Origin: Escherichia phage KK4
Sequence record: OR327750.1
Length of the DNA stretch: 64,000 nt
Strand: one strand, 5' to 3'
The notes under the pieces were generated by a model. That model did not search any database. It was not told where the DNA came from and was given only the letters and a program-made list of their open reading frames with translations. This document shows, one piece after another, positions 25,454 through 30,583 of this stretch. The position numbers were made by a program, and so were the translations under genes. How positions within the stretch are numbered: position 1 is the stretch's first letter; the number at the start of each line of letters is the position of its first letter.

Positions 25454-25480
25454 AAAAAGCCCCAACCTTTCGGTCGGGGC
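25454..25480 (-). terminator. rho-independent terminator at end of tRNA/small-RNA transcription unit
   Basis: Same hairpin and U-run as 24897-24923. Confidence 0.7.
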
Positions 25481-25487
25481 TAAGCCT

Positions 25488-25788
25488 TGCGGCAACCTTG
25501 TCGGGGTTCCACCTGCTAAGGCAAGTGTTTGTACGAAACGCCGGGATTCGAACCCGGTTATTAAGTAGTTGACGCTACTCAATATTTTTAAAAGGCCATA
25601 TCTCGACCATATCCGAACGTTCCGTCAAAAACGCTACTCGGCTTACGGCAAAGATATTTCCTCGAATCGATAATTCGGTGCGCCGTTTCTGCTGTGATAG
25701 TAAAGAGCCAGAACACAGTAAAACTGTGGGAGGAAACTATACTCCAGGGAACATCAGTCCGACGACTTACCGGTAGCGACCCGGTTTC
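25488..25788 (-). ncRNA. structured non-coding region distal to the tRNA cluster; possible small stable RNA(s) with a tRNA-like T-arm
   Basis: No credible ORF; several hairpins; CCGGGTTCGAATCCCGG T-arm-like element at 25541-25557; position equals that of T4 species 1/2 RNAs from memory. Confidence 0.3.
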
Positions 25789-26139
25789 TTAATATTCTTT
25801 TAAAGAATCAATATATTCACGGCGTTTACGCCACAAATCAATTGCTTCATACGCGGATTCAGCATTTCGAATTAGCCGGCATTTATGTAAAGACTTATGA
25901 TTTTGATATTGTGTAGATAACGGAATTGTATCTAAAAGGTCTTTACGATCAAAATATTCGTAACCATCTAAACCAAATGAACGATTTTTGAGAAATTGCC
26001 AATGACCAAATTCGTTTTGAATATAAATATAATCCGCGTGTTGATAAAGTAAATTAATTTCACGAAATGAGATATGTTTTTCATATTCATTGAAGTAAAA
26101 TGTTAAATCATGAACTACTAAATAAACATTACCTTTCAT
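25789..26139 (-). CDS. hypothetical protein, 116 aa, embedded in the tRNA operon
   Basis: ATG after GAGGAAAA, 19 nt downstream of tRNA-Arg. Confidence 0.45.
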   Translation of the reverse strand: MKGNVYLVVHDLTFYFNEYEKHISFREINLLYQHADYIYIQNEFGHWQFLKNRSFGLDGYEYFDRKDLLDTIPLSTQYQNHKSLHKCRLIRNAESAYEAIDLWRKRREYIDSLKEY

Positions 26140-26157
26140 ATTTTCCTCACTTATAAT

Positions 26158-26233
26158 TGGTCGAGGCAGTAGGGATCGAACCTACGACCTAGGACTTAGA
26201 AGGTCCTTGCTCTTCCTTCTGAGCTATGCCCCG
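26158..26233 (-). tRNA. tRNA-Arg (anticodon UCU)
   Basis: Manual cloverleaf: 7-bp acceptor, T-loop TTCGATC, anticodon loop CTTCTAA, encoded CCA. Confidence 0.8.
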
Positions 26234-26237
26234 TAAT

Positions 26238-26313
26238 TGGGGTGACCGATGGGAGTCGAACCCATGACTACGAGAATCACAATCTCGAGTTCTACCAACT
26301 GAACTACGGCCAC
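26238..26313 (-). tRNA. tRNA-His (anticodon GUG)
   Basis: Manual cloverleaf: anticodon loop TTGTGAT, discriminator C73, encoded CCA; position -1 is not G. Confidence 0.7.
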
Positions 26314-26426
26314 ATTAATACCTACTCCAACAATCAAGATGTCTTCACACGAAATTAAGAGAAGAGTGATCAGTTCAACCCTATAATCGCGTCAAGTAGA
26401 TATTAATGTGACAGTTGTCACAAATT

Positions 26427-26501
26427 TGGCGGACGTGATAGGATTCGAACCTATAACCAATCGCTTAACAGGCGATCGCTCTGCCATTGAGCTACACATC
26501 C
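26427..26501 (-). tRNA. tRNA-Asn (anticodon GUU)
   Basis: Manual cloverleaf: anticodon loop CTGTTAA, T-loop TTCGAAT, encoded CCA. Confidence 0.75.
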
Positions 26502-26505
26502 AAAT

Positions 26506-26592
26506 TGGTGGGGAGTGATGGAGTCGAACCACCCGAGTCGCAATGACAATGGATTTACAGTCCACACCGCTACCTCTACGGGATAACTCCCC
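26506..26592 (-). tRNA. tRNA-Tyr (anticodon GUA), type II with long variable arm
   Basis: Manual cloverleaf: anticodon loop CTGTAAA, 87 nt, encoded CCA. Confidence 0.7.
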
Positions 26593-26605
26593 TTAATTCT
26601 TAATT

Positions 26606-26680
26606 TGGTGGCCCTGGGTGGAATTGAACCACCATCTGGCGATTATGAGTCGCTTGCTTGAACCTTCCAGCTACAGGGCC
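26606..26680 (-). tRNA. tRNA with CAU anticodon (Met, or Ile2-type AUA reader)
   Basis: Manual cloverleaf: anticodon loop CTCATAA, T-loop TTCAATT, encoded CCA. Confidence 0.7.
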
Positions 26681-26681
26681 T

Positions 26682-26757
26682 TGGTGCTGATTGACGGAAT
26701 CGAACCGCCGACCTTCTCATTACAAGTGAGTTGCTCTACCTACTAAGCTAAATCAGC
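26682..26757 (-). tRNA. tRNA-Thr (anticodon UGU)
   Basis: Manual cloverleaf: anticodon loop CTTGTAA, perfect 7-bp acceptor, encoded CCA. Confidence 0.8.
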
Positions 26758-26762
26758 AAAAC

Positions 26763-26852
26763 TGGCGGAGGCGATAGGATTTGAACCTATGAGTCGCCGG
26801 AGCGACTGCCGGTTTTCAAGACCGGTGCATTAAACCACTCTGCCACGCCTCC
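26763..26852 (-). tRNA. tRNA-Ser (anticodon UGA), type II
   Basis: Manual cloverleaf: anticodon loop CTTGAAA, long variable arm, encoded CCA. Confidence 0.8.
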
Positions 26853-26854
26853 AG

Positions 26855-26928
26855 TCTCCATACAAGGATTTGAACCTTGGACCTCCTGATCCCAAATCAG
26901 GCGCTCTACCAAACTGAGCTACACGGAG
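26855..26928 (-). tRNA. tRNA-Pro (anticodon UGG), CCA not encoded
   Basis: Manual cloverleaf: anticodon loop TTTGGGA; 3-prime end abuts tRNA-Ser by 2 nt (dimeric precursor arrangement as in T4). Confidence 0.8.
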
Positions 26929-26938
26929 TAAATTAAAT

Positions 26939-27012
<74 letters not shown>

Positions 27013-27017
27013 AAATT

Positions 27018-27104
27018 TGGTGCGAGAAGTGGGACTCGAACCCACAAGGAAATCATTCCGCAGCATTTTAAGTGCTGTGCCTTTACCAATTTGACCATTC
27101 TCGC
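27018..27104 (-). tRNA. tRNA-Leu (anticodon UAA), type II
   Basis: Manual cloverleaf: anticodon loop CTTAAAA, long variable arm, encoded CCA. Confidence 0.8.
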
Positions 27105-27105
27105 G

Positions 27106-27178
27106 CTGGGAATAAAGGACTCGAACCTTTGCATCCTGGAATCAAAATCCAGTGCCTTACCAACTTGGCTAATTCCCA
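27106..27178 (-). tRNA. tRNA-Gln (anticodon UUG), CCA not encoded
   Basis: Manual cloverleaf: anticodon loop TTTTGAT; abuts tRNA-Leu (Gln-Leu dimeric arrangement as in T4). Confidence 0.8.
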
Positions 27179-27275
27179 ATTATTAACAAAGGCTCTCAAG
27201 CAAGAACCCTTGATGATAGAGGGTATTAATCAGTGCGATATGAGTTAATAATAACAAATAATTCTTAAAGCATAT

Positions 27276-27563
27276 TTACCATTTATGATAATACATATTT
27301 ACGATGCATTCAAGACCCAAAGGATTCTTGAAAATATCATATTCAAGAGGACCTTTTTCCGTTTCAATAAAGAAATCAAAATTTACTGTATTAAATTTAC
27401 GGTCTTCCTTCACTAATTTAACTTGAGAAGATGAACGATCAATGTAAACCTTTTCAACTTCAAAACATGTTAAAATGCCATAATCATCAATCAAGGCTTT
27501 AGCTGCTTCTTGATCATATTTATATCCATTTTCAATGGATGATACTTTCGCATAAAGAATCAT
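27276..27563 (-). CDS. hypothetical protein, 95 aa
   Basis: Minus ORF upstream of tRNA cluster. Confidence 0.5.
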   Translation of the reverse strand: MILYAKVSSIENGYKYDQEAAKALIDDYGILTCFEVEKVYIDRSSSQVKLVKEDRKFNTVNFDFFIETEKGPLEYDIFKNPLGLECIVNMYYHKW

Positions 27564-30052: not shown

Positions 30053-30583
30053 TTAAACTTCTGCTATAATTTTGCCATCTTTTTCTACTTGAAAATACGT
30101 ATAAGGAATCGTTGCTGTACATACTAAAGCTGGGTCTGAATCTTCCGTGTAGCTAAATTCTACTTCAGACAGGTCAGAAACCCAAGGCTTATAAAAATTT
30201 ATTGACATCACGATTTCAGTTTTACTGTTGTCTAAAATGTAAAGCGTAATGTATTCGGGACCAGTTTTTTGGGCAGTATTTTCGCCTGTAAGATAGTTAC
30301 TAGTTCCTAGCATCCATTCATACATTCCTATCCACGACTTAAGCTCTTCATCAACTATAAATCTCACGATGAGTGGGTCGTACTCAAATGTAACACCTGG
30401 ACGTTGTGCTCGGCCCAGTCCAAACGGCCCAGTCACGGTATCAGTAACAGGTATCCTAATTCCCGGAATAGGAACTGACTGAGCATTTAAAGTAAAAGCA
30501 GATGTAGTATTACTATGTGGTATTGATACTACAAAGTTAGTTGTATTTGCTTGGTTAAAAATTTGTTGCAGTGCTTGCGACAT
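30053..30583 (-). CDS. 3: tail completion / sheath stabilizer protein gp3
   Basis: 176 aa from first ATG (MSQALQQ); ORF-track start is TTG. Confidence 0.75.
   Translation of the reverse strand: MSQALQQIFNQANTTNFVVSIPHSNTTSAFTLNAQSVPIPGIRIPVTDTVTGPFGLGRAQRPGVTFEYDPLIVRFIVDEELKSWIGMYEWMLGTSNYLTGENTAQKTGPEYITLYILDNSKTEIVMSINFYKPWVSDLSEVEFSYTEDSDPALVCTATIPYTYFQVEKDGKIIAEV

Follow-up and report, generated by a model that had tools for sequence, protein, structure and literature searches.

Organisation of the tRNA gene cluster

Escherichia phage KK4 (OR327750.1) is a Tequatrovirus, a T4-like coliphage. In the window, by which is meant the whole stretch of 64,000 nucleotides that was analysed, the tRNA-His gene considered here lies inside a tRNA array, upstream of rnaD and rnaC and on the same strand (Table 1). 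Over 25900-27400 the window shares 100% identity with Escherichia phage GADU22 and about 98% with the wV7/slur group, and this interval has matches in 1,075 phage records. ARAGORN identified eleven tRNA genes on the minus strand, ten of which, tRNA-His included, reach the Rfam tRNA threshold; the sole Rfam match of tRNA-Tyr is to the tRNA-Sec model and falls below threshold. Within the cluster, an encoded CCA is absent only from tRNA-Gln (27105-27178) and tRNA-Pro (26854-26928), and tRNA-Gln abuts tRNA-Leu with zero spacer. The tRNA-Arg(UCU) which follows tRNA-His is its likely partner in a dimeric precursor.

The order Gln-Leu-Gly-Pro-Ser-Thr is common to the window and T4, as are the downstream rnaD and rnaC. 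In T4, by contrast, Thr-Ile is followed by the homing endonuclease segB and then by tRNA-Arg, rnaD and rnaC, with segB standing where the window has its Met-Tyr-Asn-His segment. By blastn (E <= 0.01), neither the CAU-anticodon tRNA (26606-26680) nor the tRNA-Arg(UCU) of the window matched T4 tRNA-Ile or T4 tRNA-Arg, and these positions appear to hold tRNAs which are non-orthologous to those of T4. The cluster of phage T2L resembles that of the window in having tRNA-Met, Tyr, Asn and Arg, but is reported to be without tRNA-His (PMC2330249). In the window, an open reading frame of 116 aa (25789-26139, minus strand) lies between tRNA-Arg and rnaD, which are adjacent in T4, and a strong terminator-like hairpin is found at 25458-25481, after the rnaC and rnaD homologues. 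Compared with T4, the window has tRNA-Tyr(GUA), tRNA-Asn(GUU) and tRNA-His(GUG) in addition (26238-26592). These are three of the four GUN, or queuosine-family, tRNAs, the substrate set of colicin E5-type anticodon nucleases.

Table 1. Features of the tRNA-His locus of phage KK4, with positions in the window
Feature	Position	Strand	Basis and remarks
T4-type tRNA cluster	26158..27178	minus	Order Gln, Leu, Gly, Pro, Ser, Thr, Met(CAU), Tyr, Asn, spacer, His, Arg
Spacer RNA, 113 nt	26314..26426	minus	Between tRNA-Asn and tRNA-His; MFE -30.4 kcal/mol, z = -2.95
Position -1 = T (U in RNA)	26314	minus	Sequence; -2 = A; G in bacterial tRNA-His genes
tRNA-His(GUG), 76 nt	26238..26313	minus	ARAGORN; Rfam; covariation; 7-bp acceptor stem, 8-nt D-loop, 5-nt variable loop
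G1	26313	minus	Sequence; pairs with C72
Anticodon GUG	26278..26280	minus	ARAGORN; loop UUGUGAU identical to E. coli tRNA-His loop
Discriminator C73	26241	minus	Retained histidine identity element; column invariant in 13-sequence alignment
Encoded 3' CCA	26238..26240	minus	Sequence
tRNA-Arg(UCU)	26158..26233	minus	ARAGORN, Rfam; 4 nt (AUUA) downstream of tRNA-His
rnaD homologue	25677-25789	minus	79% identity to T4 rnaD; downstream of tRNA cluster
rnaC homologue	25532-25670	minus	99% identity to T4 rnaC; downstream of tRNA cluster

A tRNA-His gene without an encoded G-1

The tRNA-His gene scores 65.1 bits (E = 2.7e-13) with Rfam family RF00005, for which the gathering score is 29, and many GenBank records already annotate it as tRNA-His. 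The minus-strand sequence runs from the leader ...GGUAUUAAU into GUGGCCG UA GUUC AGUUGGUA GAAC U CGAGA UUGUGAU UCUCG UAGUC AUGGG UUCGACU CCCAU CGGUCAC C CCA, followed by AUUA. The original prediction had described a tRNA with a GUG anticodon, C73 and T at position -1, and this description, read directly from the sequence, is correct; pairing between U-1 and C73 is impossible. An isotype other than histidine is ruled out both by ARAGORN, which called a tRNA-His (anticodon gtg) with the boundaries given in Table 1, and by the match to E. coli. In 5,426 complete E. coli genomes the 76-nt sequence matches hisR only, at 80.3% identity over all 76 nt and with one copy per genome.

The original prediction had also allowed that the acceptor stem might have been assigned one position out of register. 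This is contradicted by an alignment of 13 sequences, comprising the window gene, eleven phage homologues and E. coli hisR. On this alignment 98.5% of cells of the cloverleaf are paired and compensatory changes are found in 14 of 21 pairs, values which were matched by none of 500 shuffles, whilst sliding the 3' partners by one to three columns lowers the pairing to 34-51%. The covariation and the slide controls thus fix the register of the stems, and the acceptor stem is therefore not off by one. Reading G26313 as G-1 would furthermore give a CCCA tail and a 4-bp T stem.

Distribution of the trait among phages

A blastn search with a query of 103 nt, covering tRNA-His and both flanks, gave matches in 613 GenBank phage records, at least 187 of which show 99% identity or above. 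The phages compared in the alignment were PG7 (Karamvirus), KPV15 (Jiaodavirus), Klebsiella phage RCIP0032, a Proteus Gelderlandvirus, Moon, an Erwinia Winklervirus, Aeh1, the two Vequintavirinae Kashira and CR8, mycobacteriophage Daffodil (Bixzunavirus) and T5. U at -1 together with C73 is found in 12 of 12 phage homologues, and U-1, G1:C72, U2:A71, G3:C70 and C73 are present in all these phages. Acceptor pairs 4-7 and the D, anticodon and T stems vary with compensation, and the compensatory changes span Tevenvirinae, Aeh1, Vequintavirinae, Bixzunavirus and T5. Such compensation in the stems across phage families, while U-1, C73 and the top three pairs are unchanged, points to long-term selection on the tRNA. 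Judged by this comparison, the lack of G-1 is a real trait and not an annotation slip, because the same feature is conserved in many large lytic phages.

Only one homologue with G-1 was found, on contig CAKLQF020000034.1 ('Acinetobacter phage MD-2021a'). Besides a host-type tRNA-His with G-1, this contig encodes nadA and adenosine deaminase (add), and it looks like bacterial sequence filed as phage. In the copy of Citrobacter phage Moon (L125:608-683) the T-loop, UUAGAAU, is aberrant and the T stem contains an A-C mismatch. This copy lacks a tRNA annotation, is overlapped by a 'hypothetical protein' CDS and may be a decaying copy.

In IMG/VR contigs carrying the tRNA-His family of the window, the base at -1 is other than G in 11 and G in none. 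A pattern scan of IMG/VR for viral tRNA-His genes of any kind gave 120 loci. In this sample G-1 is present in 47 of 50 singleton genes, most of them host genes located at the ends of prophages, and missing from three, whereas of 69 genes inside clusters 51 have it and 18 do not (Fisher p = 0.006 for the difference in loss); U-1 and C73 occur together in 15 of these 18. Three of the contigs (L001, L100 and L116) have a tRNA order which fits Karamvirus PG7 and not T5. In the same phage tRNA clusters, G is found at -1 in 17 of 766 non-His tRNAs (2%) as against 41 of 68 tRNA-His genes, and T in 63% of the non-His tRNAs. Since G-1 is rare in non-His tRNAs and usual in tRNA-His, the deviation at -1 is more than chance. 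The background frequencies of T and G imply that a tRNA-His gene without G-1 has an ordinary tRNA leader. Counted by gene, T exceeds this background (25 of 27 non-G tRNA-His genes, p = 6e-4 versus 63%), but a tally by lineage (14 of 16, p = 0.03) makes the excess of U a weak one.

A second class of G-1-less phage tRNA-His is found in tightly packed arrays, where the gene begins one nucleotide (T) after the preceding tRNA. This gap of one nucleotide occurs in nine loci (L030, L036, L051, L055, L075, L084, L108, L112 and L131), and the Glu-His pair of mycobacteriophage Bixzunavirus is one example of the class.

A structured RNA upstream of tRNA-His

A terminal helix of 14 bp (26407-26394 with 26327-26314) closes the spacer which precedes tRNA-His; its 3' strand ends exactly at -1. 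In RNAalifold analysis of nine Straboviridae none of the 14 helix pairs is broken and several covary, and in nine of nine U-1 belongs to the closing A-U pair. When spacer and tRNA are folded together, the leader helix extends 3 bp into G1-G3 (CAC/GUG); the CAC is not conserved in all relatives. A helix-closed spacer of about 100 nt recurs before tRNA-His in relatives including CR8 and T5, and the T5 interval is annotated as 'rnaIII, stable RNA with unknown functions'. The window spacer has no match in Rfam. Homology to T5 rnaIII or to T4 rnaC and rnaD was considered and rejected, as no sequence similarity was detected and the architecture alone is common. An automatic 'leader helix' score over all loci was also discarded, being confounded because the acceptor stem of the upstream tRNA itself scores as a helix.

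Processing of the 5' end

Cleavage of pre-tRNA-His between -2 and -1 depends on U-2, G-1 and the G-1:C73 pair (PMC5499578). All three are absent from the window tRNA-His, in which -2 is A. A-2 U-1 next to G1:C72 constitutes the canonical E. coli RNase P substrate of the cryo-EM structure, and U-1 is found in some 60% of E. coli pre-tRNAs (PMC11143913). Ordinary cleavage is expected because the A-2 U-1 leader is canonical and the determinants which would redirect the enzyme are absent, and the product would most likely be a tRNA-His with a 7-bp stem and without G-1. Atypical 5' processing and poor charging had both been put forward in the original prediction; ordinary cleavage at -1/+1, giving a G-1-less tRNA, appears the better bet and would favour poor charging, in a mild form.

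A different outcome would follow if RNase P, or the release of the spacer RNA, cut between -2 and -1. The mature tRNA would then keep U-1, with its 5' phosphate where that of G-1 would sit, and HisRS would charge it reasonably despite the U-C mismatch. The near invariance of U at -1 is in keeping with this. However, in Straboviridae U-1 has another reason to be kept, since it belongs to the closing A-U pair of the spacer helix; in other lineages it is the one nucleotide between tRNA-His and the tRNA before it, as in the nine loci noted above; and, counted by lineage, U exceeds the background only weakly. In the T5 record, rnaIII and tRNA-His meet at -2/-1, the tRNA-His entry (30206-30283, 78 nt) extending one base further 5' than the cloverleaf so as to include U-1. 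This entry opposes ordinary cleavage in that it may reflect knowledge of a 5'-extended mature form, but it may merely follow the rule that tRNA-His has an extra 5' base. The same record notes that a CUA-anticodon version of the tRNA is an effective amber suppressor. C73 is described as a negative determinant of cleavage at the canonical site (PMC5499578). A review of tRNA identity states that the base of G-1 serves chiefly to position the critical 5'-monophosphate, and that the HisRS of A. pernix also accepts A-1 and C-1 (PMC9976931). Against these points stand the optimal canonical leader and the lack of every published redirecting determinant, and the retention of U-1, though the chief competing explanation, is considered unlikely.

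Charging and proposed role

The HisRS of E. coli is of the G-1 type (PMC3064791), and its efficiency drops more than 100-fold in vitro without G-1 (PMC3064791; PMC5499578); poor charging per molecule is therefore expected. C73, the three acceptor pairs at the top of the stem and the anticodon loop found in the host tRNA-His are all retained in the window tRNA, a pattern which fits continued recognition by HisRS. Histidine-accepting tRNAs coded by T5 were reported in charging and hybridisation work of 1976-80, tabulated in PMC4810235, and the T5 tRNA-His also combines U-1 with C73.

The explanation favoured here, held with about even confidence, is that the gene encodes a functional tRNA-His(GUG) which undergoes ordinary 5' cleavage, carries no G-1, is weakly charged by the host HisRS and serves to top up or replace the host tRNA. 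The gene is transcribed as part of the T4-type tRNA cluster. The precursor would probably include the upstream spacer RNA and the adjoining tRNA-Arg, and the A-2 U-1 leader, with no base at -1 able to pair with C73, would lead host RNase P to cut at the usual -1/+1 position. The mature tRNA would begin at G1, with a normal 7-bp acceptor stem and no G-1; no G-1-adding enzyme is detectable in the phage. The host HisRS would recognise C73, the invariant pairs G1:C72, U2:A71 and G3:C70 and the GUG anticodon, with a catalytic efficiency much below that for the host tRNA-His, and high expression during infection may make this weak charging sufficient. The tRNA could then add to, or stand in for, what the single tRNA-His gene of the host produces, for instance when anticodon-directed defence nucleases cleave host tRNAs. 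The replacement of cleaved host tRNAs by phage tRNAs is documented, and the probable cleavage products listed for AriB, the PARIS nuclease, include tRNA-His(GUG) as well as tRNA-Asn. By analogy with other phage tRNAs, for which such a purpose is documented, the tRNA-His probably supplements or replaces host tRNAs. Against the favoured explanation, it seems odd that so poor a tRNA should be conserved in at least four phage lineages.

The RNA might instead not be mainly a substrate for translation. It would then be largely uncharged, acting as a decoy or sponge for a host nuclease which targets tRNAs, or else contributing to the processing or stability of the cluster transcript. Its predicted poor performance as a HisRS substrate would suit such a function, as would the documented existence of tRNA-targeting defence nucleases and of phage tRNAs which counter them. 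In the one case examined, however, phage tRNAs supplemented the tRNA pool and did not inhibit the nuclease. Moreover, the features invariant in the alignment are those of decoding and charging (the loop UUGUGAU, C73, CCA, the T-loop and G18G19), and the histidine-accepting T5 tRNAs cited above also weigh against a decoy, so that a role of this kind is held to be distinctly improbable.

Possible addition of G-1 after transcription

In eukaryotes and some archaea, G-1 is added opposite position 73 after transcription by a 3'-5' nucleotidyl transferase. The retention of C73 in the phage tRNA would make the templated addition of G chemically possible, and phages are known which carry candidate enzymes. 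When 50,697 phage genomes were searched by tblastn with yeast Thg1 (scoring 173 bits in Pfam) and two phage Thg1-like proteins, matches were obtained in 123-164 phage records, mainly from Bacillus, Caulobacter, Mycobacterium and jumbo phages. The yeast query also matches PHROG 4717, which is annotated as tRNA-His guanylyltransferase. Among the matches listed, however, there is no T4-like or T5-like enterobacterial phage, although these groups contribute many hundreds of records, and a Thg1 profile search of all open reading frames of the window found nothing, the best score being 7 bits. E. coli is not known to have a Thg1 family member.

A link between a Thg1-like gene and a missing G-1 was also considered. 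Of 80 IMG/VR loci carrying a Thg1-like gene, only five have a tRNA-His gene within 10 kb. The presence of a Thg1-like gene and the loss of G-1 are not simply correlated, because two of the four distinct tRNA-His genes in these neighbourhoods clearly encode G-1, which itself tells against addition. On the IMG/VR contigs L149 (9523-9597) and L153 (9524-9598), a G-1-encoding tRNA-His stands about 400 nt upstream of the Thg1-like gene. Addition of G-1 to the phage tRNA opposite C73 is regarded as highly improbable.

Least probable of all is that the gene is a decaying or neutral copy on its way to becoming a pseudogene, its G-1 lost by a 1-nt deletion: the T4 tRNA region is dispensable in laboratory hosts (PMC2330249), tRNA-His is absent from T4 and T2L and the Moon copy looks degenerate, but the proportion of paired stem cells and the 14 compensatory pairs given above, at identities down to about 76% across phage families, speak against decay, as does the conservation of the gene with both flanks in at least 187 records.

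Comparison with known types of tRNA-His

With E. coli hisR, the window gene shares the GUG anticodon in an identical loop, C73, G1:C72, U2:A71, G3:C70, an encoded CCA, the 8-nt D-loop and the 5-nt variable loop, in addition to the overall identity noted above. It differs in its leader. In hisR, where the sequence is ...GUAGU G GUGGCUA..., G-1 follows U-2 and the stem after RNase P cleavage has 8 bp, whereas the window has A-2 U-1 and no -1:73 pair. Furthermore, pair 4:69 is G:U in the window and not G:C, and the anticodon and T stems differ.

The tRNA-His of T5 (T5t07) is also that of a lytic coliphage, and has U-1, G1:C72, C73 and an encoded CCA. As in the window, a long terminal helix closes the RNA of about 100 nt which precedes it, here rnaIII, directly upstream. 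Its sequence has, however, diverged strongly: the D-loop has 9 nt, the D stem is different, and three unpaired nucleotides stand between the helix and G1, whilst the window helix ends at -1.

The tRNA-His of some alpha-proteobacteria, the Caulobacter type, likewise has no G-1 in the gene and a 7-bp acceptor stem, and its mature form is also without G-1, as is predicted for the window tRNA. This class has A73, G1:U72 and a 9-nt D-loop with U20a, and is charged by a co-evolved, anticodon-reading HisRS (PMC3064791). The window tRNA, by contrast, combines C73 and C72 with an 8-nt D-loop, and has to rely on the G-1-type HisRS of E. coli. The Thg1-matured tRNA-His of eukaryotes and archaea resembles it in that G-1 is not encoded and RNase P is expected to cut at +1. 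These systems, however, add G-1 with Thg1, and no Thg1 family gene is detectable in the lineage of the window phage. On these sequence features, the phage tRNA is neither of the alpha-proteobacterial G-1-less class nor of the Thg1-dependent kind. It is best described as a bacterial-type tRNA-His which has lost the encoded G-1 and kept C73, in phages of hosts with a G-1-dependent enzyme.

Implications for histidine identity in phages

For bacterial HisRS, G-1 counts as the dominant identity element, and the one exception accepted in bacteria involves a co-evolved synthetase. Here, a G-1-less, C73-bearing tRNA-His is under purifying selection in several unrelated phage families, the hosts of which (E. 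coli and its relatives, and Mycobacterium) use the standard G-1 system. A full-text search of the literature found no statement on phage tRNA-His lacking G-1. One reading is that charging 100-fold worse may still pay, for example in the emergency replacement of cleaved host tRNAs. The other is that identity rules established in vitro may not fully describe infected cells. It is attractive to consider, in this connection, that the U-1/C73 tRNA-His genes of Straboviridae, Vequintavirinae, Demerecviridae (T5) and Bixzunavirus form a distinct class, which the unmodified host HisRS histidylates efficiently, either without a nucleotide at -1 or with U-1 retained. This proposal is tentative and more probably wrong than right. 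If true, it would represent a natural and widespread bypass of the main bacterial histidine identity element. The finding bears on the annotation of phage tRNA-His genes and on their use, for example as orthogonal tRNA scaffolds, and presents, in model phages, a conserved and previously unreported exception to a textbook identity rule.
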